Of a DNA stretch of 64,000 bases, positions 2,887-59,360 are shown one piece after another. A model generated the notes under the pieces. That model searched no databases. It had not been told where the DNA came from and was given only the letters and a program-made list of their open reading frames with translations. The position numbers and the translations under genes were made by a program. This DNA is from Pseudomonadota bacterium (lineage in GTDB: Bacteria > Pseudomonadota > Gammaproteobacteria > UBA1113), in the NCBI GenBank assembly GCA_021781965.1, contig JAJXVU010000003.1, positions 15,880 to 79,879 of the forward strand, given 5' to 3'. How positions within the stretch are numbered: position 1 is the first letter of the stretch; every line of letters starts with the position of its first letter.

Positions 2887-3192
2887 TTATCGCATTAAAT
2901 CGGCCAAAGCTTGCCTAAACTGTGGTCCGTAAAAAACACCGCCTACTGGCACTTTACCTTCTAAGGCTTCTGTAACTTTATACGCCCATTCTGGACCAAA
3001 ACCACCGCACAATTCAAGCATTTGATAGCCTTCTGTGGCCAATGCTTTGGCCACATCTATAACTTTGCTTTTATCGGCCATATCGATGCCTACCGCTTTA
3101 AAGCGATAACCATTTTTTTCCGTCATAATACTATTTTCTTCAGCGCTAAAGCCGGGGGTTAAAAATATAAATGCAAATGAATTAAACTTCAT
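2887..3192 (-). CDS. small hypothetical protein
   Basis: ORF lying between the SDR and OYE genes on the same strand. The real start may be the internal Met (MTEKNGY...). Confidence 0.35.
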   Translation of the reverse strand: MKFNSFAFIFLTPGFSAEENSIMTEKNGYRFKAVGIDMADKSKVIDVAKALATEGYQMLELCGGFGPEWAYKVTEALEGKVPVGGVFYGPQFRQALADLMR

Positions 3193-8727: not shown

Positions 8728-8804
8728 TGGTGCGCCCGGAGAGATTCGAACTCCCGACCGCCTGGTTCGTAGCCAGGTACTCTATCCAGCTGAGCTACGG
8801 GCGC
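8728..8804 (-). tRNA. tRNA-Arg (anticodon ACG)
   Basis: The reverse complement folds as a 77-nt cloverleaf: GCGCCCGTAGCTCAGCTGGATAGAGTACCTGGCTACGAACCAGG...TTCGAATC...CCA. Confidence 0.85.
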
Positions 8805-8954
8805 ACATTAATCCATACTCTTCGCATTTGCTTCTTAAGCTTTGTTGCCTTCGCCCATCTCGCACCAGTATATGACAGAGTATGTCACTCCTAACGCTCG
8901 AGGACTAGCCTTCTCGCCTAAAAACCAACTGCTATGAGCATATCACTCTAAACG

Positions 8955-9047
8955 TGGTGGAGAGAGAGGGATTCGAACCCTCGATGAGGCTATAAACCCC
9001 ATACTCCCTTAGCAGGGGAGCGCCTTCGACCACTCGGCCATCTCTCC
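8955..9047 (-). tRNA. tRNA-Ser (anticodon GCT), long variable arm
   Basis: The reverse complement reads GGAGAGATGGCCGAGTGGTCGAAGGCGCTCCCCTGCTAAGGGAG...GGTTCGAATCCCTCTCTCTCCACCA, 93 nt. Confidence 0.85.
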
Positions 9048-9367: not shown

Positions 9368-9728
9368 TCCAGAAACCTCCTTATCCGTGCCTTGCAGCAC
9401 ATTATACTTTAGAACTCTAAATATGCTTATGAGGTACGACCCACAAACACCCTATTATTATACATGAAAATCCTTAAGATATTCTTAAGGATTTAATAAT
9501 AGCACAAATTTTAATTTTTGCCTTTAAGGCCATTTTCAAGATTTATTCATTAAAATCAAATGCTTACAATAATAAAATGAATGGTATAGCCTGATAAAAA
9601 ATAATTAGATATACCCCTAATTTTAAGCGCCATAAGCCAATAGAAAGGACCATTGGCCTTATAAATAGCGATCTTCTAAAAACCATTTACAATGTCGTTT
9701 GTGAAGTCATCGGTATGAATTAGCGTGT

Positions 9729-25808: not shown

Positions 25809-26075
25809 ATGTTGGTAGAAAATATTACTCTCAACAATAAATTAGGTCTACACACCCGAGCCGCCGCTAAATTGGTTGAACTATCCAGTCGTTTCAGCAG
25901 TCAGATTGAACTCAGTCTAGACGCCAAAAAGGTCAATGCCAAAAGCATTTTAAATGTGATGTTATTATCTGCGGGCAGTGGTTCCCAAATGACAATCACC
26001 ATAGAAGGTACAGATGAGAATGAAGCCATGACAGCATTGAAAGCTTTATTTCACAGCAATTTTGGTGAGGAATAA
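25809..26075 (+). CDS. ptsO: phosphocarrier protein NPr (HPr-like)
   Basis: 88-aa HPr fold (LGLHTRAAAKL with His), located downstream of rapZ. Confidence 0.8.
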   Translation: MLVENITLNNKLGLHTRAAAKLVELSSRFSSQIELSLDAKKVNAKSILNVMLLSAGSGSQMTITIEGTDENEAMTALKALFHSNFGEE

Positions 26076-26123
26076 TGTAATTGCTTGAGCGAAAACAACA
26101 AAGCCTAATGATCAAATGTGAAG

Positions 26124-26376
26124 AGTATACTCACAGCAGTTGGTTTTTAGGCGCGGCGCCGAGCTCGCGAGCACCAGGAGTGTAGTACTCTACATGACTG
26201 GTGCGAGAGGGCGAAGGCAACAAAGCATAAAAATAAAATGCGAAGAGTATACTCATAGCAGTTGGTTTTTAGGCGCGGCGCCGAGGCCTCGAGCACCAGG
26301 AGTGTAGTATTCTACATGACTGGTGCGAGATGGACGAAGGCAACAAAGCATAAAAATCAAATGCTATGAGTATACT
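26124..26376. repeat. two tandem copies of a ~122-bp structured repeat element bounded by AGTATACT palindromes
   Basis: AGTATACT occurs at 26124, 26246 and 26369. Each unit contains the GGCGCGGCGCC palindrome and a nested hairpin GCACCAGGAGTGTAGTACTCTACATGACTGGTGC. The last palindrome overlaps the pmbA stop codon. Confidence 0.6.
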
Positions 26377-27697
26377 AGTCTTTTCCTGCCACCATCATCT
26401 CAGCCACCAATACAGAGCCACTTTCTATATAATTACGATCATTCACATCGTTACCTATGGCGACAATATTGGCAAATATATCTTTTAAGTTACCGGCGAT
26501 AGTCACTCCTTCAACGGGATATTGGATTTTGCCATGCTCTACCCAAAAACCACTCGCCCCTTGTGAATAATCCCCCGTGACTAAGTTAACGCCCATGCCC
26601 ATAACTTCTGTGACTAACAAGCCCCTATCCATTTTTTGCAATAGTGCTTGTTGATCTTCGCCGGTAGAATGCACCAAAATATTATGCGGGCCGCCGGCAT
26701 TGCCGGTTGTTTCTAAGCCCAAGCGCCGTGCAGAATAACTATTTAAAATATAACCTTGCAAAACTCCTGCTTTTACTAAATCGCGCTTTTGTGTAGCCAC
26801 CCCTTCTTTATCAAAATAACTGCTCGCCCAAGCGCGCTGTATGTGTGGGTCTTCGATTATAGTAACACACTCATTCAGAATGGCTTTTCCTACAGTGCCT
26901 TTCAAAAAAGAAGCATCGCGGTATAAATTACCCCCGCTGATCGCGGCTAATAATTCTCCCCATAATCCTGCCACCATGCGTTGACTGAAAATAATAGGCA
27001 TTTTTCCTGTAGAAATGCTTTGTGCACCCAATTTTTGCACGGTATATTCAGCTGCGCGTTTGGCAACTTGACCAAAATCATCTAAAGTTTTTGCATCGCG
27101 GCTGTGTGTATATTCATAATCGCGCTGCATAGCGCCACTTTTATCCGAGGCCAATAAAACACAACTAAAAGCATGCGAGGTAGAACGTACCGTACCACAA
27201 AATCCATGTGAATTGGCATAGACATAATCGGATTGATGCGTATTGAGATTAACCCCTTCTGAATTGCTAATACGCTTATCACTCGCTATGGCCACCGCTT
27301 CAGCTTCTTTTAATAAGGGGATGGCTTCTTCGGGCGTGATTTGCCAAGGATGATATAGATCCAATTCTATTGCTTTTTGTGCCATGCGTTCTTTAGGCGC
27401 TAAGCCTGAAGCGGGATCCTCATCGGTATATTGCGCAATGGTCCATGCTTTATCTAAGCAATGATTTAAGGCTTCTTCTGATAGATCGGAACTACTGACT
27501 ATACCCTGCCGTTGGCCACAATAGACCGTTAAAGTTAAACCTTTATCACGATTAAATTCGACGGTATCAACTTCACCTTTACGCACGTTAACAGTAAAGC
27601 CTTCGCTAAACGTAGCATTGGCTTCCGCCGCACTAGCGCCTTTTTGTTTAGCTTTATTCAATAAAGCTAAAATCGTAGATTCAATATCATCTCTCAT
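26375..27697 (-). CDS. pmbA: metalloprotease PmbA/TldE
   Basis: 440-aa TldD/PmbA-family protein. Confidence 0.85.
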   Translation of the reverse strand: MRDDIESTILALLNKAKQKGASAAEANATFSEGFTVNVRKGEVDTVEFNRDKGLTLTVYCGQRQGIVSSSDLSEEALNHCLDKAWTIAQYTDEDPASGLAPKERMAQKAIELDLYHPWQITPEEAIPLLKEAEAVAIASDKRISNSEGVNLNTHQSDYVYANSHGFCGTVRSTSHAFSCVLLASDKSGAMQRDYEYTHSRDAKTLDDFGQVAKRAAEYTVQKLGAQSISTGKMPIIFSQRMVAGLWGELLAAISGGNLYRDASFLKGTVGKAILNECVTIIEDPHIQRAWASSYFDKEGVATQKRDLVKAGVLQGYILNSYSARRLGLETTGNAGGPHNILVHSTGEDQQALLQKMDRGLLVTEVMGMGVNLVTGDYSQGASGFWVEHGKIQYPVEGVTIAGNLKDIFANIVAIGNDVNDRNYIESGSVLVAEMMVAGKD

Positions 27698-27786: not shown

Positions 27787-29517
27787 TTAGAAATAAGCGT
27801 CTAGCTGTAAGAAGACACCATTCCCCGAACCTCCATCGGAATTAAAGACTACTCCATTATTACCGCCAGCCGTATCATTTGAACTATAATTGATATAATG
27901 TTGCAACTCCAAATTCAGAACAGTGTTTCTCAAAATAGAAGAACTGATTGTCGCCATGTAGGCCCGTTTGGGTACGCCCAAAGCTAAAGCCTGACTACTT
28001 TGGTCAAAGCCTAAACCGAAGGCAGAGGGTCTACTATAAATTTTAAAGTTATAGTCGCCTTCCAAGTGCGTAGCGGTCGGCTGGGCGCCTTCACCATTGT
28101 ACATTAAATCCTGCGAACTAAAAGACTGCGTCGCCAGACCATGTTCACCGATAAACTCAAAATCATAAGAGGTAACATCGAAACGCAGATCTGCGCCGGG
28201 CACATTATGTTTCAATACTTCAGTTTGCGATGATTCACCAAAACCCTGAAATTGATCGCTAGAAAGAGGCGTAGATTGCATACCACTACTATCAGCTACA
28301 TTGCTTATACCACTCACAGATAAACCAACATTGGTGTTGCTACTGAATGCAAAATGATACGTTAAATCTCCACCATAGGTGTTTAGAACTACATTATCAT
28401 TTGGCATCGTATCATCATCGGACGAGTTAGGATTTACATCCCCTGTTTGTACCGCCCCATTAAAGCCATAAATCGATGCATCTAATCCCGTAGATTGAGT
28501 AGAATTATAACCCAAGATCAACGCTCTGCCCTTAGTACGGAACAAAGTTTTTGTAAATGGATCGGTGACTCCATACGTTCTGTAAGAACCAAAAGGCACA
28601 TACAACTGACCTACCGTGCCGTAATAATGGGATTTATCAAAATTTCCAATATTAATAAAAGCATTATCTAAATAAAGATTGGAGTTGCTTATTGGATTAC
28701 CGCCACTTGATGGGCCAGAATTATACGCAAACGACATAAAGCCCGAAGTCCAGGTATTAATGCGTGCCTGCATATCTAATTCTGCGTTACTTAAGTTTAG
28801 ATTACCCGCACTGTTAGGGCCGCTTATATGCATACCTAATGCCTCGATATTGCCACTTAATTCTAGCAATGGATAGTTGGGAAGCGCTAAGCCCAGCGAG
28901 GTCATCTCATTTACAAAGTTTTTATCCTGCTGCATGATTGCAATGTTCTTTTTCACACTAGAATAGTTGACTATTAAGTCATAGCCACCGAACTGTCGAT
29001 CTGATTTTATGAACGGCGCGGTAATTACGGCTGTACCACCAAGATTGGCTAAATCTCCCCGCCCGCCATAGGGTTCAGCCGCTAAATTAGTACCTGATGG
29101 GGGTAATAATGCTTGTTTCGCATCGTCCGAAACCGGAGTTGTAGTCACCGAGGTCACACCATCGGCTGCTACGACGGCGTTAGCATTCGCCTTAGGCGTT
29201 GATTTAGAGGATTGGGTTGCAACCGTTGCGGATTGGCCATTCTTAGCTGTTGCGTTAGAAGAAGGTTTTGCAGCAGGCACTGTTGCTGCTACCGGTGTTG
29301 CCACAGGAGCCGCTTTTGCAGTTTTTAATTCTGCAATTTGTTGTTGCAATTGTTGCACTTGTTGTTGTAGCGCTGCAGTTTGTTGACTTAATAATTCTAC
29401 TTGTTTGTCTACATTATCATTTGCAGAGGAAGCAGCCCAACCATCAGAAACCACGCCGCCACCTAGGACGACCGCCAATGCCATACTGATTTTCTTAATG
29501 CGCAAAAAATTTACCAT
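27787..29517 (-). CDS. outer-membrane beta-barrel protein, Legionella-MOMP-like porin with N-terminal coiled-coil and Ala/Thr/Val-rich linker
   Basis: Signal peptide, Q-rich coiled coil (LQQQVQQLQQQIAELK), a low-complexity linker, then Gly/Asn/Tyr-rich amphipathic beta-strands ending in ...LQLDAYF (C-terminal Phe). Confidence 0.6.
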   Translation of the reverse strand: MVNFLRIKKISMALAVVLGGGVVSDGWAASSANDNVDKQVELLSQQTAALQQQVQQLQQQIAELKTAKAAPVATPVAATVPAAKPSSNATAKNGQSATVATQSSKSTPKANANAVVAADGVTSVTTTPVSDDAKQALLPPSGTNLAAEPYGGRGDLANLGGTAVITAPFIKSDRQFGGYDLIVNYSSVKKNIAIMQQDKNFVNEMTSLGLALPNYPLLELSGNIEALGMHISGPNSAGNLNLSNAELDMQARINTWTSGFMSFAYNSGPSSGGNPISNSNLYLDNAFINIGNFDKSHYYGTVGQLYVPFGSYRTYGVTDPFTKTLFRTKGRALILGYNSTQSTGLDASIYGFNGAVQTGDVNPNSSDDDTMPNDNVVLNTYGGDLTYHFAFSSNTNVGLSVSGISNVADSSGMQSTPLSSDQFQGFGESSQTEVLKHNVPGADLRFDVTSYDFEFIGEHGLATQSFSSQDLMYNGEGAQPTATHLEGDYNFKIYSRPSAFGLGFDQSSQALALGVPKRAYMATISSSILRNTVLNLELQHYINYSSNDTAGGNNGVVFNSDGGSGNGVFLQLDAYF

Positions 29518-38366: not shown

Positions 38367-38971
38367 TACAGCACGTCTGCATTACCAGACAAATAAGCGC
38401 TCACACCTTCGGAAGTAGGTTTCATCGCTTTTTCGCCTTTTTGCCAGCCTGCAGGGCATACTTCACCGTGTTTGTTGGCAAATTGAATGGCATCGATCAA
38501 ACGTAATATTTCATCTATATCGCGACCGATAGGTAAATCATTGATGATTTCGCTACGTACCAATCCTGTAGCATCCACCAAAACCGCTGCACGGAATGCA
38601 ACGCTAGCCGTAGGATGTTCTATGCCGTAACCCTGGCAAATGCTGTGATTCACATCCGCTACCATCGTATATTTTACAGCACCAATACCGCCCTTGTTGA
38701 TAGGGGTATTGCGCCAAGCAGCATGTGTAAATTGTGAGTCTATAGAAACCGCTATAACTTCTACATTACGCGCTTGAAATTCAGCCATGCGTTTGTCCAG
38801 GGCAATCAGCTCCGTAGGACAAACAAAGGTAAAATCTAAAGGATAAAAGAATATTAAGGCTTCCTTACCCTTGGTGCGCTCAGCAAAATGGTAATCGCTA
38901 ATGATTTCACCATTAGCCAACACCGCGCTAGCTCTAAAATCTGGCGCATTACGCCCTACTAATACCGTCAT
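38366..38971 (-). CDS. ahpC: 2-Cys peroxiredoxin (AhpC/Tsa family)
   Basis: 201 aa with FTFVCPTE (peroxidatic Cys) and the resolving Cys in HGEVCPAGW. Confidence 0.9.
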   Translation of the reverse strand: MTVLVGRNAPDFRASAVLANGEIISDYHFAERTKGKEALIFFYPLDFTFVCPTELIALDKRMAEFQARNVEVIAVSIDSQFTHAAWRNTPINKGGIGAVKYTMVADVNHSICQGYGIEHPTASVAFRAAVLVDATGLVRSEIINDLPIGRDIDEILRLIDAIQFANKHGEVCPAGWQKGEKAMKPTSEGVSAYLSGNADVL

Positions 38972-39011
38972 ATCGAACTCCTCATAAATTATAAAAACAC
39001 AGGGTAAACAA

Positions 39012-42810: not shown

Positions 42811-42823
42811 GCATTCAATTCAC

Positions 42824-42849
42824 CCGCTCCCTGGCGGTCGCGGCTCGGT
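42824..42849. repeat. REP-like element copy (CCGCTCCCTGGCGGTCGCGGCTCGG)
   Basis: Lies between the bamB stop and the der start; variant of the core found at 24866 and elsewhere. Confidence 0.5.
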
Positions 42850-42857
42850 ATGTCGTT

Positions 42858-50946: not shown

Positions 50947-51002
50947 AATTTTTGTTTACCATGAAAATCTTTATTAGACGTATTAAAGTATATCTCATTC
51001 AT

Positions 51003-51066
51003 CCGCTCCCTAACGGTCGCGGCTCGGTATTGTATTTATAACAGCCCCAACCGTCAGGGAACGGAT
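51003..51066. repeat. REP-like element: core CCGCTCCCTAACGGTCGCGGCTCGG plus inverted partial copy (hairpin)
   Basis: ccgctccctaacggt ... accgtcagggaacgg form an inverted pair lying between the rlmN start and the ndk stop. Confidence 0.5.
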
Positions 51067-51083
51067 AGAAAGAGTAATTACCT

Positions 51084-53385: not shown

Positions 53386-53431
53386 TGGCGCTATAGATAA
53401 TATGGGATCTTTTTTTATGATGATTCTCCGA

Positions 53432-53620
53432 TTAATACCGTTAAATTGCCATGGCGCGGATAGAGCAAGCCTCGAACAAACCCCTCTTTATCCGCTCCCT
53501 GACGGTCGCGGCTCGGTATATATATCTACTCTTTAATACCGTTAAATTGCCATGGCGCGGATAGAGCAAGCCTCGAAGAAACCCCTCTTTATCCGCTCCC
53601 TGACGGTCGCGGCTCAGTTA
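53432..53620. repeat. two tandem ~95-bp units, each ending in the REP-like core
   Basis: The unit ttaataccgttaaattgccatggcgcggatagagcaagcctcga(a/c)(c/g)aaacccctctttatccgctccctgacggtcgcggctc(g/a)gt is repeated twice. The second copy overlaps the lpd stop codon. Confidence 0.5.
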
Positions 53621-55056
53621 CTTCGTTTTTTAGGCATATACAAGTCTGTTACGGTGCCCTCGAAAATTTCTGCTGCCATCGCCACGCTTTCAGATAAGGT
53701 CGGATGCGGATGTATCGTTAAAGCGATATCTTCCACATCGGCGCCCATTTCTATTGCCAAGCACAACTCGCCGATCAACTCACCCGCATTAGGCCCTACA
53801 ATACCGGCACCAATGACTTTATGATTGTCATTATCGACAATCAATTTAGTTAAGCCTTCATCACGCGCCATACTCAAGGCACGGCCGCTGGCCATCCAAG
53901 GGAAAGTAGCAGTACCATAATTCAAACCTTGTGCTTTAGCTTGTTCTTCGGTCACACCTGTCCAGGCCACTTCGGGATCAGTATAAGCCACTGAAGGAAT
54001 ACAGGTTGGTGTAAAATAATGTTTTAAGCCGGAAATAACTTCTGCTGCTACTCGCGCTTCGGCAACCGCTTTATGCGCCAACATAGGTTGACCGACGATA
54101 TCGCCTATAGCGTAGATATGAGCAACATTGGTTTTCAGTTGTGTGTCTACCTCTATAAAGCCGCGTTCATTCACTTTAATAGTGGTTTTGTCTAAGCCTA
54201 AACCATCGCTGTTAGATCGTCGACCTACTGCCGATAAAATTTGATCAAAGCGTTGTGGCTCACTAGGCGCGCCGTCGCCTTCGAAAGTGACCCATAAGCC
54301 GTCTTTTTTAGCTTCTACTTTTGTGACTTTTGTTTTCAATAGAATTTGCTCGTATTGTTTAGCAACAAATTTATGGAAAGGTTTGATTAAGTCTCTGTCT
54401 GCACCCGGCATTAAACCATCCATTAATTCCACTACAGTGATCTTACAACCCAGCGCTCTATAGACCGTCGCCATTTCCAAGCCGATGATGCCACCCCCTA
54501 TGACCAACATATTGCCATCGACTTTAGCTAATTCCAAGGCACCAGTTGAATCTATGATGCGTGGATCGTCTGGCAAGAAAGGTAGTTTTACTGGTCTAGA
54601 ACCAGCAGCGATGATGACATCATCAAATTGCACCGTTTGCTTGCCTTCTGCTGTGGTAACGGTAATCGTTGTATCATTTTCAAATTGTGCTACACCTTGC
54701 AAAATTGTTACACCGCGTTGTTTGGCCAGTGCTTTTAAACCACCCGTTAAACGGCCTACGACTTTATCCTTAGCCGCTTTCAAGGTTTGTGTATTCACCT
54801 TAGGTGCAGCAAACTCTATACCCCAGGATTTAATATCGTGCGCTTCATCTATAACTTTAGCGCTATGTAATAAAGCTTTAGAAGGAATACAGCCTACGTT
54901 TAAGCATACACCACCTATCGCTGCATATTTTTCTATTAATAATACTTTTAAACCTAGATCGGCGGCTCTAAATGCCGCGGTGTAACCACCAGGGCCACTA
55001 CCAATAACGACCAAAGGAAAATGTAATTTATTTTCTGTACTCATTGCTGTCTCCAA
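53614..55056 (-). CDS. lpd: dihydrolipoyl dehydrogenase (E3)
   Basis: 480 aa with the FAD motif GSGPGGY and the redox disulfide GGVCLNVGCIPSK. Confidence 0.9.
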   Translation of the reverse strand: METAMSTENKLHFPLVVIGSGPGGYTAAFRAADLGLKVLLIEKYAAIGGVCLNVGCIPSKALLHSAKVIDEAHDIKSWGIEFAAPKVNTQTLKAAKDKVVGRLTGGLKALAKQRGVTILQGVAQFENDTTITVTTAEGKQTVQFDDVIIAAGSRPVKLPFLPDDPRIIDSTGALELAKVDGNMLVIGGGIIGLEMATVYRALGCKITVVELMDGLMPGADRDLIKPFHKFVAKQYEQILLKTKVTKVEAKKDGLWVTFEGDGAPSEPQRFDQILSAVGRRSNSDGLGLDKTTIKVNERGFIEVDTQLKTNVAHIYAIGDIVGQPMLAHKAVAEARVAAEVISGLKHYFTPTCIPSVAYTDPEVAWTGVTEEQAKAQGLNYGTATFPWMASGRALSMARDEGLTKLIVDNDNHKVIGAGIVGPNAGELIGELCLAIEMGADVEDIALTIHPHPTLSESVAMAAEIFEGTVTDLYMPKKRSN

Positions 55057-55144: not shown

Positions 55145-55273
55145 TATACTCCAGCAGTTGGTTTTTAGGGTAGAAGACTAGCCCTCGAGCACCAGGAGTG
55201 TAGTACTCTACATGACTGGTGCGAGATGGGCGTAGGCAACACCCCCTAAAAATCAAATGCGAAGAGTATATTA
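55145..55273. repeat. single copy of the ~125-bp structured repeat element, intercistronic between aceF and lpd
   Basis: tatactccagcagttggtttttagg...cgagcaccaggagtgtagtactctacatgactggtgcgagatgggcgtaggcaaca...aatgcgaagagtatatta. The terminal palindrome abuts the aceF stop codon. Confidence 0.55.
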
Positions 55274-56512
55274 GAAGCTAAGCGGAACACCTTCGATATA
55301 TTCCACTAATTGCTTACAAAAGCGCGCACCATCGGCGCCATCAATCACGCGGTGATCATAAGATAAAGACAAAGGTAACATTAAACGTGGCACAAAACTG
55401 CCTTTGTCGTACACCGGTTTATAGCTGGACTTAGACACACCTAGAATCGCCACATCAGGAGCATTGATGATAGGTGTAAAAGCCGTACCACCTATGCCGC
55501 CCAAACTAGAAATGCTGAATGAACTGCCTTGCAATTCAGGCGTTTTTAACGCTTTATTCCGCGCGCGTTCACTGATGCTGGCCAATTCCGCTGCCAATTC
55601 CAACACGGATTTTTTATCTACATCACGCACTACTGGCACTACTAAACCATTCGGTGTATCTACCGCCACACCCAAATGTATATATTGTTTCAATACAATA
55701 GAGGCGCCATCAGCTGACAAAGAAGAATTAAACTGAGGCATCTTTTTCAATGTTGCTGCAACCGCTTTCATGATAAACACCAAGGGCGTTAACTTAAAGC
55801 CTTGTTTTTCGACTTCAGCTTTATGCTCGGCCCTAAAGATCTCTAAATTCGTAATGTCGGCTTCGTCAAATTGAGTCACATGCGGAATAGTGACCCAATT
55901 GCGATGTAAATTCGCGCCTGACAATTTTTTAATTTTGGATAAAGACTCTATGGTAATAGGGCCAAATTGGGCAAAATCAATTTGTGGCGCGGGAGGAAAT
56001 GCAAAACCGCCACCGCCGCCTTGCATACGTGATTGCACATACGCTTTCACATCTTCTTTTGAAATACGACCCTTAGGCCCAGTTGCTGGAATTTGCCTTA
56101 AATCTAAATCCAACTCACGCGCTAATCGTCTAACCGCAGGACCTGCATGCAGATTATCGGCAATAGTGGGTTGCGCCGTTTCTTTAACCGCAGCAGCTAC
56201 AGGTGCTGTTCTCGCGCCCGTTTCTTTTTTATCAGCAACTTTTTCTTCTTTTGCAGGTTTTTCGACGCTGACTTCGGTCTTTAACAATAAAATAACACTG
56301 CCTTCAGTAACTTTATCACCTACTTTAGCACTGACGCTTTCTACGAGGCCCGCATAAGGGCTAGGCACATCCATACTGGCCTTATCAGATTCTAAGGTGA
56401 TAATCGGATCGTCTACGGCGATTGTATCGCCTGCCTTTACTAATACTTCAATGACATCAACCGCCTCACTCTGTCCAATGTCCGGAACTTTTACTTCTAT
56501 TACGTTTGACAT
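55271..56512 (-). CDS. aceF: pyruvate dehydrogenase E2 (dihydrolipoamide acetyltransferase), single lipoyl domain
   Basis: Lipoyl-Lys context ESDKASMDVPS, an Ala/Pro linker, and the catalytic DHRVIDG motif. Confidence 0.9.
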   Translation of the reverse strand: MSNVIEVKVPDIGQSEAVDVIEVLVKAGDTIAVDDPIITLESDKASMDVPSPYAGLVESVSAKVGDKVTEGSVILLLKTEVSVEKPAKEEKVADKKETGARTAPVAAAVKETAQPTIADNLHAGPAVRRLARELDLDLRQIPATGPKGRISKEDVKAYVQSRMQGGGGGFAFPPAPQIDFAQFGPITIESLSKIKKLSGANLHRNWVTIPHVTQFDEADITNLEIFRAEHKAEVEKQGFKLTPLVFIMKAVAATLKKMPQFNSSLSADGASIVLKQYIHLGVAVDTPNGLVVPVVRDVDKKSVLELAAELASISERARNKALKTPELQGSSFSISSLGGIGGTAFTPIINAPDVAILGVSKSSYKPVYDKGSFVPRLMLPLSLSYDHRVIDGADGARFCKQLVEYIEGVPLSF

Positions 56513-56544
56513 CTTAACCTCTTACATAATACATTTTTAATAAC

Positions 56545-56698
56545 ACCCATATTACATGAATTCGAGACTATTACACCCATCCGCTCCCTAACGGTCGCGG
56601 CTCAGTTATCTTGTATAATACATTTTAACAAAACCGATATTTCACGAATTCGCGATTATTATAGCCATCGGCCCATTACGGTCGCGGCTCGGTTATAA
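56545..56698. repeat. two direct copies of an extended (~65-bp) REP-like element between aceE and aceF
   Basis: acccatattacatgaattcgagactattacacccatccgctccctaacggtcgcggctcag, followed by aaccgatatttcacgaattcgcgattattatagccatcggcccattacggtcgcggctcgg. Confidence 0.5.
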
Positions 56699-56699
56699 A

Positions 56700-59360
56700 T
56701 TAACACTTTACAGGATTCTCTTTATTGGGATTAATTCCTAAATCTTTCATCGCTTTTTGCAGTACTTTTAGCTCGATCGACTTTTCATCGTACAGTGCTT
56801 TTAAGCTGGCATAGGCAATCGTATTGCTATCCACTTCAAAGAACTGACGCAAAGCACGTCGCGTATCGCTGCGACCAAAGCCATCTGTACCCAACACCGT
56901 ATAAGAGCGATCGCCCAAATAAGCGCGTATGGGTTCGGCATAAGCACGCACATAATCGGTTGCCGTTAAAATGGGGCCTTTGGTAGTCGCCAAGCATTGC
57001 GTGACATAAGGCACTTTAGCCGTTGCTTCAGGATGCAAACGATTATCGCGTTCTATAGCCCAAGCTTCTCTATATAATTCATTAAAGCTGGGGGCGCTCC
57101 ACACCTGCGCTTCTACACCATAGTTTTGCAATAGCGCTTTAGCCGCAATCACTTCGCGCAGAATAGTACCGGAACCTAATAACTGCACTGTAGGCTTTTG
57201 TGTTGCTTCTATTTTTTCCAAACAATACAAACCACGTATAATGCCCTCGCGTGCACCTTCAGGCATAGCTGGGTGCAGATAGTTTTCATTCATCACCGTG
57301 ATGTAATAATAAACATCTTCATTTAAGCCATACATACGATGCAGTCCCTCTTCAATAATGACAGCTAATTCATAATGAAAAGTAGGATCGTAACTGATGC
57401 AATTTGGTATTAAGCCTGCCATGACATGGCTATGGCCATCTTCGTGTTGTAAGCCTTCACCGGACAAGGTCGTACGGCCCGCGGTAGCGCCTATTAAAAA
57501 ACCACGCGCTTTTTGATCGCCAGCAGCCCAGGCCAAATCGCCAATGCGTTGAAAACCAAACATGGAATAATAAATATAAAAAGGCAACATCGCCAATTGA
57601 TTGGTGTTGTAAGACGTAGCTGCCGCCAACCAGGAAGAAAAAGCACCCGCTTCTGTCAAACCTTCTTCTAAAAGTTGTCCTTTGACATCTTCTTTGTAAT
57701 ACATCAATTCGCCAGAATCGACGGGTTTATATAATTGGCCTTCTATTGAATAAATACCCAATTGACGGAACAAACCTTCCATACCAAAAGTACGTGATTC
57801 ATCGGCCACAATCGGTACAATTCTATCTTTGATACCTTTATCTTTTAACAAACTACTTAAGATACGCACAAAAGCCATGGTGGTAGAATATTCTCTATCG
57901 TGACTCCCCTGCCAATGCGCCTCCCACAGCGCTGCTTCGGGCAATGTTAAGCTACCTTCTGTTAGTTTGCGTTTAGGAAAATCACCGCCTAGGGCTTTAC
58001 GCTGCTGTTGCAAATAGTTTAATTCAGGAGAACCTTCAGTAAATTGCATATAAGGTACTTCTGCTAACTCTTTGTCCCCCACTGGGATCTTCAAACGATC
58101 ACGCATATAGGTCACATCTTCTAAAGCTAATTTTTTCTGGTTGTGGGCTGTATTCTGCGCTTGACCTACTGGACCTAAACCGTAGCCTTTAACACTTTTA
58201 GCCAGGATAACCGTAGGCCGACCATTGTTTGCGTCCACTGCTTGTTTATAAGCGGCGTAGACCTTTTTGCGATCCAACCCACCATAGCGCATTTCAAAAA
58301 GCGTTTCATCCGATAAATGCTCGACCATGGCCAATAAACGTGGATCACCACCAAATAACACTTCTCTAACCACCGAGCCATCTTTAGCTTGGCATAATTG
58401 ATAATCGCCATCGACCATATCCATAATGCGTTGATGCAATAAGCCTTCCGTATCACGAGCAAATAATTCATCCCATTCGCTGCCCCAAATGACTTTAATC
58501 ACGTTAAAGCCTACGCCGCGAAAATGACTTTCTAATTCTTGGATGATCTTACCATTGCCACGCACCGGGCCATCTAAACGCTGCAAATTGCAGTTGATCA
58601 CAAAAATAAGATTATCCAACTGTTCTTTTTGCGCGATATGCAATGCGCCTACCGATTCTGGTTCATCCATTTCACCATCGCCACAAAACACCCATACTTT
58701 ACGGCCAGAGGTATCTTGCAAACCGCGATTCTGCAAATATTTCAAAAATCGCGCTTGATAGATCGCTTGTATAGGACCTAAACCCATCGATACCGTTGGA
58801 AATTGCCAAAAATCCGGCATTAGCCAGGGATGCGGATAAGAAGAAATACCTTCACCACCCACTTCTTGACGGAAATGGTCTAGTTGTTTAGCGGATAAAC
58901 AACCCATTAAATAAGCAAAAGCATATATGCCTGGAGACGAGTGTCCCTGCATATAGACGCAATCGCCATGTGAAGCATCGTCTACGCTGCGAAAAAAGTG
59001 CAATAACCCTACTTCATATAATATAGCCGAAGATGCAAAGGTTGAAATGTGACCGTCCACACCCGGAGCATTACGCGAAGCGCGTACCACCATGGCCATA
59101 GCATCCCAGCGCATAAAAGCATCGATACGCTCTTCCAAAGCGAGATCGCCTGGATAAGCAACTTCGTCTTCTATTGCGATGGTATTGATATAGTCCGTAG
59201 TCGTTAAGGGTGCATTCACACCCAAACGCCGTGCTTTGTCTAATACCCGCGTTAAAATGTAATCGGCACGTTCAACCCCTTCTTCACGAATCAGGGAATC
59301 CACTGCATCTACCCACTCCTGTGTCTCTGTAGGATCAACATCGATTAAATTCTTTTTCAT
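56700..59360 (-). CDS. aceE: pyruvate dehydrogenase E1 component (homodimeric type)
   Basis: 886 aa; the N-terminus MKKNLIDVDPTETQEWVDAVDSL parallels E. coli AceE. Confidence 0.95.
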   Translation of the reverse strand: MKKNLIDVDPTETQEWVDAVDSLIREEGVERADYILTRVLDKARRLGVNAPLTTTDYINTIAIEDEVAYPGDLALEERIDAFMRWDAMAMVVRASRNAPGVDGHISTFASSAILYEVGLLHFFRSVDDASHGDCVYMQGHSSPGIYAFAYLMGCLSAKQLDHFRQEVGGEGISSYPHPWLMPDFWQFPTVSMGLGPIQAIYQARFLKYLQNRGLQDTSGRKVWVFCGDGEMDEPESVGALHIAQKEQLDNLIFVINCNLQRLDGPVRGNGKIIQELESHFRGVGFNVIKVIWGSEWDELFARDTEGLLHQRIMDMVDGDYQLCQAKDGSVVREVLFGGDPRLLAMVEHLSDETLFEMRYGGLDRKKVYAAYKQAVDANNGRPTVILAKSVKGYGLGPVGQAQNTAHNQKKLALEDVTYMRDRLKIPVGDKELAEVPYMQFTEGSPELNYLQQQRKALGGDFPKRKLTEGSLTLPEAALWEAHWQGSHDREYSTTMAFVRILSSLLKDKGIKDRIVPIVADESRTFGMEGLFRQLGIYSIEGQLYKPVDSGELMYYKEDVKGQLLEEGLTEAGAFSSWLAAATSYNTNQLAMLPFYIYYSMFGFQRIGDLAWAAGDQKARGFLIGATAGRTTLSGEGLQHEDGHSHVMAGLIPNCISYDPTFHYELAVIIEEGLHRMYGLNEDVYYYITVMNENYLHPAMPEGAREGIIRGLYCLEKIEATQKPTVQLLGSGTILREVIAAKALLQNYGVEAQVWSAPSFNELYREAWAIERDNRLHPEATAKVPYVTQCLATTKGPILTATDYVRAYAEPIRAYLGDRSYTVLGTDGFGRSDTRRALRQFFEVDSNTIAYASLKALYDEKSIELKVLQKAMKDLGINPNKENPVKC

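Follow-up and report, generated by a model that had tools for sequence, protein, structure and literature searches.

Why does the same hairpin-rich sequence of about 125 bp recur at the ends of genes in an uncultured gammaproteobacterium? The question was raised by an earlier note on a 64,000-nucleotide stretch of contig JAJXVU010000003.1 (GCA_021781965.1; hereafter the window), which listed six copies and offered as identities a MITE (miniature inverted-repeat transposable element) of Correia/NEMIS, ERIC or RUP type, a terminator or transcript stabiliser, and a small RNA. Our data show that the repeat is very probably a divergent subfamily of ERIC (enterobacterial repetitive intergenic consensus, also called IRU or RU-1), residing in a lineage far from Enterobacterales. 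ERIC membership accounts fully for the repeats of the window, and a new element need not be postulated. Taken as a whole, the best explanation likely joins this identity to a proposed action at the level of RNA. ERIC, a non-autonomous element, has been known since 1990-91, and ERIC-PCR typing is used worldwide. The element is described as 127 bp long, with terminal inverted repeats, TA termini and a TA duplication (PMC2229807; PMC2759123), and a 2024 review gives its hosts as Enterobacteriaceae and Vibrionaceae (PMC10969869).

Two 21-nt core patterns of the repeat occur 6 and 5 times in the window, compared with 0.01 and 0.00 expected from dinucleotide-preserving shuffles. We scanned one genome per species for the 21-nt core, and a profile search of the fetched loci returned at least 83 full-length copies (the window's included) and at least 15 partial ones, figures that are lower bounds and biased by the fetch pattern. 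At least 70 further copies thus lie beyond the window, in six uncultured Gammaproteobacteria genomes named below, where their absence would have spoken against the earlier note. The consensus of 70-76 copies is 127 nt long (TATACTCACAGCAGTTGATTTTTAGGCGAGGCGCCTAGCCCTCGAGCACCAGGAGTGTAGTACTCTACATGACTGGTGCGAGATGGGCGAAGGCAACAAAGCCTAAAAATCAAATGCGAAGAGTATA), and the consensus and nested hairpin quoted in that note were correct. Because the central motif CCAGGAG, the small hairpin and TGACTGGnGCGAG resembled the ERIC primer region (the core used for ERIC1R and ERIC2), we fetched the ERIC between ybhJ and ybhI of E. coli. This element is 127 nt long and has the ends TATACTC...GAGTATA, as in the family consensus; the termini of a Salmonella ERIC are also identical to those of the family. 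Of the 127 positions, 77 are identical between the consensus and the E. coli ERIC (61%; z ~7 against shuffles), and the alignment score is 86 in the sense and 53 in the antisense direction.

Reciprocal searches with covariance models carry the assignment. A model built from 70 copies of this family (R1) matches the E. coli ERIC over positions 1-127 with 54.5 bits (E ~1e-10), compared with 18.2 bits on the opposite strand and at most 11.5 bits in an E. coli control of 50 kb. A second model (R2) was built from 11 enterobacterial ERIC sequences only: seven plasmid ERICs (two from Citrobacter and one each from Pantoea, Salmonella, Lelliottia, Klebsiella and E. coli), two E. coli chromosomal ones, and two published 127-nt references, the E. 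coli consensus and Salmonella SeRU-1 (PMC2759123). R2 recovered seven of seven copies in the window, each end to end and on the proper strand; their E-values ranged from 3.5e-16 to 1.8e-4. Elsewhere in the 64 kb it found nothing better than E = 0.06, and its next two matches were the reverse strands of two copies.

The two groups are alike in length, ends and architecture. Both are 127 nt long, with ERICs of E. coli, Citrobacter, Salmonella and Klebsiella measuring 125-128 nt; both end in TATAC[T/C]C...G[A/G]GTATA with TA; and both place the core CCAGGAG before a small hairpin and then TGACTGGnGnGAG. The predicted base of the single rod hairpin has the same layout of helices and bulges in the E. 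coli ERIC as in the family, namely a 7-bp terminal stem, a 3-nt internal loop, 3 bp, a 1-nt bulge and a long stem, and a small apical hairpin sits within the upper stem of both. Both fold more strongly on the G-U-rich sense strand, and both occur in intergenic DNA, inside operons and at gene ends, with an equal relation to stop codons. They differ in that the window family is only ~61% identical to the E. coli ERIC, has a host outside Enterobacteriaceae and Vibrionaceae, and has a high local density, at 7 copies in 64 kb compared with ~30 in the whole of E. coli K-12 (PMC10969869).

Where the earlier note saw several separate hairpins, we found that the whole unit is one 127-nt hairpin. Folded as sense RNA, the consensus is a single rod of 47 pairs and -70.9 kcal/mol. 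Individual copies reach -46 to -64 kcal/mol on the sense strand, with folding z-scores of -8.9 to -10.5 against shuffles (-3.4 in the weaker copy U5, described below). The fold is conserved among copies with compensatory changes; a lack of such conservation would have spoken against the earlier note. In an alignment of 70 distinct copies, standard pairs occupy 90.3% of pair cells, compared with 33-42% when partners are slid by 1-3 columns, and at the termini, between columns 1-7 and 131-137, 93.9% of cells are paired. Double changes occur at 24 pairs, compared with 11.5 in shuffles, and none of 500 shuffles reached the observed value. Examples of compensation include ACC/GGT, CCC/GGG, ATC/GAT, AAC/GTT and AAA/TTT in the upper stem, and GGCG.../...GCC versus GGGT.../...ACCCC in the lower stem. 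The pairing counts come from a minimum-free-energy fold of the consensus on a trimmed alignment, which replaced an uninformative RNAalifold result (10 pairs) on a first alignment that included flanks and gaps.

The hairpin is also strand-specific. The sense strand folds more strongly in 66 of 70 copies, with a mean of -55.9 compared with -44.4 kcal/mol, because of G-U pairs; the E. coli ERIC shows the same bias (-52.3 versus -38.2 kcal/mol). G-T pairs outnumber A-C pairs by 86 to 34 in the family alignment and by 40 to 9 in the enterobacterial ERIC alignment. An apparently greater conservation of the 3' arm (GCGAGATGGGCGAAGGCAACA) than of the 5' arm was dropped from the analysis, since the 21-mer within it had served to fetch loci, and for the same reason the family G-T/A-C count was redone without those columns and without uncertain apical columns. 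The G-U bias suggests that selection acts on a single strand, whether RNA or a single-stranded DNA intermediate. Since no mismatch in single-stranded DNA is more stable than G-T, strand asymmetry is no proof of RNA. It would also suit a purely selfish DNA, whose hairpin and termini are kept only for transposition (through an intermediate of single-stranded DNA or a hairpin, for example), whose pile-up at gene ends reflects only lethality elsewhere in a compact genome, and which has no function for the host.

One part of the hairpin varies between orthologous copies. In three of four orthologous pairs the internal loop switches between GGCGCC and GAAGAC or GAAGGC (window 8814-8942 and L041:6199-6325; window 55145-55270 and L071:3569-3694; L067:3949-4072 and L032:1441-1563), and one pair also exchanges the apical hairpin TGTAG...CTACA for TGAC...GTCA. 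The copies compared have flanks and derived end mutations in common. These switches suggest either conversion among copies or re-insertion at one site; toggling of internal variants that resembles conversion would also fit selfish DNA.

Comparison of related metagenome-assembled genomes (MAGs) revealed the insertion polymorphism between relatives that the earlier note had proposed to look for. Locus L009 (JBIPMB01) is filled at positions 2949-3076, and the corresponding site in L055 (JAJYCX01), with flanks ~90% identical, is empty. The empty site reads AAAGA-TA-TTTCC, with TA exactly at the insertion junction, and the 3' copy of this dinucleotide in the filled site reads TT. A few hundred bases away, L009 and L055 each have an element in one and the same spacer, but these lie in opposite orientation and 18 nt apart, and are therefore two independent insertions. 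Two sites that relatives have filled are empty in the window itself: 17107-17114 (filled in L008) and 38980-38988 (filled in L092 of VFJT01). Conversely, L092 has no element beside the pmbA stop, a place that holds two and a half units in the window. The family was thus mobile after these MAG lineages diverged. Tandem units have TA or TATA in common, and the flanks favour A at position -1 (46%) and T at position +1 (55%). Filled and empty sites are compatible with a TA target, and the pattern as a whole may reflect the TA duplication reported for ERIC (PMC2759123).

Independent recent insertions, empty sites, tandem arrays and truncated remnants are all what purely selfish DNA would leave behind. 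Orthologous copies, however, have been kept across MAGs whose flanks are 84-93% identical, and the placement of copies relative to genes is hard to reconcile with a passive passenger. Among 72 full copies, 25 lie sense and 10 antisense between co-directional open reading frames (ORFs), 19 between convergent and 12 between divergent ones. We counted stop-codon geometry for ORFs of at least 100 codons. Among 20 ORFs that run into the 3' end of the element, 12 have their stop codon exactly at its boundary and 3 more within 1 nt; none of the 20 enters the element. Exact abutment uses all three stop codons (TAA, TGA and TAG). If elements were placed uniformly within spacers, about 3 exact 3' abutments would be expected, compared with 11 observed. 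No converging ORF uses the in-element stops at +18 or +25, though two of three frames have one.

At the 5' end the picture is different: 11 of 28 ORFs read into the element and use its own stops, TAG (+11), TGA (+18) and TAG (+25), while nine co-directional ORFs stop 0-3 nt before it. Where a co-directional gene lies downstream of the 3' end, its start is typically 11-36 nt away, with a ribosome-binding site directly after GAGTATA. The element sits in short, presumably transcribed spacers, and its geometry toward stop codons is fixed and orientation-specific. Symmetric insertion followed by tolerance leaves the exact 3' abutments, and their asymmetry with 5' read-in, unexplained.

Enterobacterial ERICs show equal geometry in the six cases with annotated neighbours, which again speaks against selfish DNA alone. 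A converging stop lies 0 nt from the element in Rahnella, 1 nt from the ybhI ERIC of E. coli and 4 nt from the Pantoea ERIC, whose 5' end is also abutted by an upstream stop; the 3' end of the Klebsiella ERIC is overlapped by a converging stop. The stop of a gene lies inside the 5' end of the Salmonella ptsG ERIC, and in Citrobacter an upstream stop lies 3 nt ahead of the 5' end. Weighing these observations, we regard a purely selfish element as possible, if on the unlikely side. The 0-nt docking itself may reflect a target preference for T-R-A followed by TA together with purifying selection, or selection for a ribosome-gated arrangement. We also considered whether the TTA or TCA that follows the 3' end is a stop codon supplied by the element. 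For pmbA and ahpC this idea was discarded, because both genes keep their C-termini and stops in L092, which has no element at these two sites; the stops are therefore native. Use of all three stop codons across the family also speaks against it.

In the window, coordinates refined with the covariance model define seven full copies and one 3' fragment. All six copies listed in the earlier note are present on the plus strand where it had placed them; a seventh, on the minus strand, and the fragment had been overlooked. At the first locus, the 3'-terminal fragment (26086-26130, plus strand, ~45 nt, a partial nhmmer match) begins 10 nt past the stop codon of the HPr/NPr gene (26073-26075) and heads a tandem array of 2.4 units; R1 gives a weak longer match over this region (26045-26129, 19.4 bits). 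The full copies U1 (26126-26251, plus strand; 112.8 bits with R1; 41 bits, E 1.1e-9 with R2) and U2 (26248-26374, plus strand; 138.5 bits with R1; 62 bits, E 3.5e-16 with R2) have TATA in common at their junction. The 3' end of U2, GAGTATA, is followed by CTA, which is the TAG stop (26375-26377) of converging pmbA (26375-27697, minus strand; PmbA domains found). The sequence AGTATACT, which the earlier note took for a unit delimiter, arises only here, from the head-to-tail overlap of GAGTATA with CTC. Ends at the other loci read GAGTATATA, GAGTATATT or GAGTATGG, and the real termini are the inverted repeats TATACTC...GAGTATA.

At the second locus, U3 (36988-37116, plus strand; full; 113.6 bits with R1; 24.1 bits, E 1.8e-4 with R2) starts 9 nt after the stop of an 82-aa ORF (36730-36978) and has the variant apical hairpin TGAC...GTCA. 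It has TA in common with U4 (37115-37240, plus strand; full; 139.1 bits with R1; 57.5 bits with R2). Directly beyond the 3' end of U4 come the ribosome-binding sequence AAGGAG and then the start codon ATG (37254) of a response-regulator gene called at 307 aa. The most diverged full copy, U5 (38236-38365, plus strand; 91.8 bits with R1; 29.7 bits, E 3.4e-6 with R2), is followed by TTA, the TAA stop (38366-38368) of ahpC (38366-38971, minus strand), which converges on it. U6 (55145-55270, plus strand; full; 141.1 bits with R1; 61.7 bits, E 4.5e-16 with R2) occupies the spacer between aceF and lpd and runs antisense to the operon. Directly beyond its 3' end comes TTA, which is the TAA stop (55271-55273) of aceF (55271-56512, minus strand), and its other end lies 88 nt from the lpd start; the orthologous copy in L071 (JBIPMB01) spans L071:3569-3694. 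The overlooked full copy, U7 (8814-8942, minus strand; 115.8 bits with R1; 26 bits, E 4.6e-5 with R2), stands between tRNA-Ser (8955-9047) and tRNA-Arg (8728-8804) genes in the same orientation as both, and its orthologue in L041 (JAJYCX01) is L041:6199-6325. The claim that every copy abuts a stop codon thus held for the pmbA, ahpC and aceF stops, which touch the 3' end exactly, and failed for U3, U4 and U7.

The aceF-lpd spacer of E. coli K-12 also contains a 127-nt ERIC (L117:5256-5382), in sense orientation and ~30 nt before the lpd start. Since this copy is sense and U6 is antisense at the aceF stop, the spacer was hit independently in two distant lineages.

What might such an arrangement do? 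Stop-proximal ERICs of Yersinia reportedly prefer one orientation, as De Gregorio and colleagues are said to have found in 2005. Yersinia ERICs are described as co-transcribed, with an outcome set by their orientation, and as destabilising the upstream transcript in a manner that depends on RNase E and on translation: at the 3' end of a gene, a ribosome that terminates beside the base of the hairpin stops it from folding and so uncovers an RNase E site in the far arm (PMC10969869; PMC2229807). By analogy, the repeat could act at the level of RNA, as a co-transcribed hairpin whose ribosome-dependent folding modulates mRNA decay, a mechanism for which we judge the odds to be about even. In this scheme a transposase that targets TA would move the element in trans, as proposed for ERIC, and surviving copies would be co-transcribed with their neighbours. 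Where the base of the hairpin lies at or within 3 nt of a stop codon, a terminating ribosome would keep that base open and would thereby leave the distal arm accessible to RNase E or 3' exonucleases, by analogy with the Yersinia account. Such access might then adjust how abundant the upstream cistron is compared with the downstream one; in the Yersinia account the upstream level is lowered. Copies further from a stop codon would form their hairpin unhindered and serve as barriers to decay. With the geometry observed here, the hairpin's first base falls 0-3 nt from the stop, as the mechanism would need.

The same hairpins might instead be transcription terminators, or 3' stabilisers that block exonucleases and serve the gene whose stop they touch. 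The great stability of the sense-strand hairpin would suit either role, as would the 19 of 72 copies between convergent genes, where a bidirectional barrier would be useful, and a decay-barrier role has been proposed for REP sequences and for some ERIC orientations (PMC2229807). However, we found no intrinsic-terminator-like site inside the two element loci scanned and no T-run after the hairpin. Moreover, 25 + 10 copies lie between co-directional genes, with the next start often only 11-36 nt off, and copies within aceEF-lpd and between two tRNA genes poorly fit obligatory termination. We therefore consider this account improbable.

Less probable still, and indeed very unlikely, is an independent small-RNA gene like the QMITE-derived small RNAs of Coxiella. 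The fold is stable and strand-biased, as a small RNA's would be, and MITE-derived small RNAs are known in Coxiella (PMC5896051). Rfam also contains V_AS5, a family of Vibrio antisense RNAs against which the E. coli ERIC reaches 46 bits, and ERIC-like sequences have therefore been seen as transcripts. Against this, the two loci scanned have no promoter-like site inside the element or facing into it and no terminator, and copies occur in both orientations toward their neighbours, squeezed into the gap that separates a stop codon from the ribosome-binding site after it. Of the identities proposed in the earlier note, the reciprocal covariance-model searches uphold the ERIC-type MITE, while the terminator and the independent small-RNA gene are unsupported.

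The V_AS5 family deserves a remark of its own. Its model (RF02818, 'Vibrio RNA AS5') matches the E. coli ERIC at L115:109-232 over its full length with 46.4 bits, compared with a gathering score of 96, and RF02818 is probably an ERIC copy itself.

Several observations weigh against the combined reading of ERIC identity and RNA-level action. A plain family hidden Markov model (HMM; nhmmer) missed the E. coli ERIC locus, which made covariance models necessary. The element had no match in Rfam, with E-values allowed up to 10 on one copy and up to 1 otherwise, and V_AS5 misses both window loci tested. Pfam scans of 29 proteins from the window found no transposase, and the DNA examined contained neither a longer element with these ends nor a multi-copy sequence of at least 250 bp shared between loci of one MAG. 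The sole clear pair of filled and empty sites has a degenerate second TA, and the filled site of L008 carries 34 extra nt and an 8-bp duplication. Symmetric TA-targeting insertion alone does not explain the stop-codon geometry, and the RNA-level mechanism is carried over from Yersinia. In related searches, blastn of the family consensus against 72,556 plasmids returned no match, and no solo half-elements were paired across a gene. The family is thus too distant from ERIC for blastn, a plain HMM or Rfam. At gathering thresholds, Rfam reports two tRNAs only over the whole window; one permissive match, to a plant microRNA hairpin (21.5 bits), was discarded as spurious.

The L008 site has features of its own. 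There the element lies between two genes that in the window overlap by ATGA (window 17095-17120). The extra 34 nt (L008:780-813) include the ribosome-binding site GGGAGGGG and occur nowhere else in the DNA examined, and the 8-bp duplication (AAAAATGA) restores the start of the downstream gene.

Where does this subfamily live? Among the matches listed in the 21-nt scan, the non-chance loci number at least dozens and come from six uncultured MAGs, JBIPMB01 (Lake Mendota), VFJV01, VFJT01, JAJYCX01, JAJXUV01 and JAJNBM01, labelled 'Gammaproteobacteria bacterium' or 'Proteobacteria bacterium'; the other matches listed were chance hits in GC-rich organisms. Proteins of the window also occur in metagenome assemblies and in similarly labelled NCBI MAGs. 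AceE shares 57% and Lpd 58% identity with its E. coli counterpart, which places the host far outside Enterobacterales: it is an uncultured freshwater gammaproteobacterium, distantly related to enteric bacteria. The window is ordinary chromosomal DNA, with rapZ, the HPr gene, pmbA, ahpC, sodB, aceEF-lpd, hisS, der, bamB and rlmN.

Other families of small repeats resemble the element less closely. The Correia (NEMIS) elements of Neisseria are likewise small MITEs (~100-160 bp) with terminal inverted repeats, TA ends and a TA duplication, and they are co-transcribed, form a long hairpin and affect mRNA processing (PMC2229807; PMC10969869). They differ in their 24-bp terminal inverted repeats, the IHF site of the long form, promoter elements and RNase III cleavage (PMC2229807; PMC10969869). 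Correia/NEMIS and RUP are recognised by terminal inverted repeats of their own, and RUP by similarity to the ends of IS630-Spn1 (PMC2229807); the window family is matched instead by the ERIC models. QMITE1 and QMITE2 of Coxiella burnetii are also MITEs of a non-enteric gammaproteobacterium, and QMITE2 lies mostly in 3' untranslated regions, sometimes with a 1-10 bp overlap with gene ends (PMC5896051). QMITE1, however, is 300-400 bp long with 21-28-nt terminal inverted repeats and an IHF site, and QMITE2, at 150-190 bp, has 7-11-nt direct repeats as well as a GTAG REP core that IS1111 targets (PMC5896051). Compared by description, these features are absent from the unit in the window, which is 127 nt long with TA ends and has no 7-11-nt direct repeats. 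REP and BIME sequences, too, are extragenic, transcribed, hairpin-forming and multi-copy, and have been proposed as barriers to mRNA decay. REP units depend on a RAYT gene. They are small G-C-rich stem-loops and form a class apart from TA-ended MITEs (PMC3184786).

The window contains a second, unrelated repeat family, which is REP-like and has a core of ~28 nt (ATCCGCTCCCTRACGGTCGCGGCTCRGT), sometimes with an inverted partial copy. Its members lie at 42820-42850, 51001-51029 (with an inverted partner at 51048-51069), 53489-53517, 53590-53618, 56579-56606 and 56665-56695. Two segments that bear it, 53403-53627 and 56524-56700, are absent from L071 of JBIPMB01 and therefore look like insertions after lpd and between aceE and aceF. 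Larger differences between relatives were also seen. A segment of ~3.9 kb (9569-13443), absent from the otherwise collinear L041 (JAJYCX01), encodes a 1201-aa protein without a Pfam match (9729-13334, minus strand), whose gene contains an internal repeat with a period of ~42-45 nt at 12123-12265. Another segment of ~7 kb (31430-38365) is absent between orthologous flanks in L092 (VFJT01); it contains three ERIC-like copies and the genes for a solute-binding-like protein, a hybrid sensor kinase, the 82-aa ORF and the response regulator. Finally, 27787-29517 (minus strand) encodes a 576-aa protein with no Pfam match; its N-terminus looks like a signal peptide, a glutamine-rich stretch like a coiled coil, and its C-terminal part like an outer-membrane beta-barrel.

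The novelty of these findings is modest: a known element in a new host range. The origin of ERIC, the enzyme that mobilises it and its function are still largely unsettled, and the wider host range raises the question of ancient vertical descent versus horizontal transfer. The family also provides new genomes in which to seek ERIC's autonomous partner; since independent insertions are found in MAGs with ~90% identical flanks, these genomes could reveal the enzyme that moves it. As an independent data set with conserved structure, polarity and stop-codon geometry, the family strengthens the case for RNA-level action by ERIC. More tentatively, and with considerable doubt, ERIC may be no peculiarity of enteric bacteria and vibrios but an ancient structured element across Gammaproteobacteria, whose 127-nt hairpin, polarity and exact docking of one particular end on native stop codons of all three kinds have been kept over very deep divergence. 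If true, this would point to a mechanism that is tied to translation termination and has been conserved, and not to junk that is simply tolerated.

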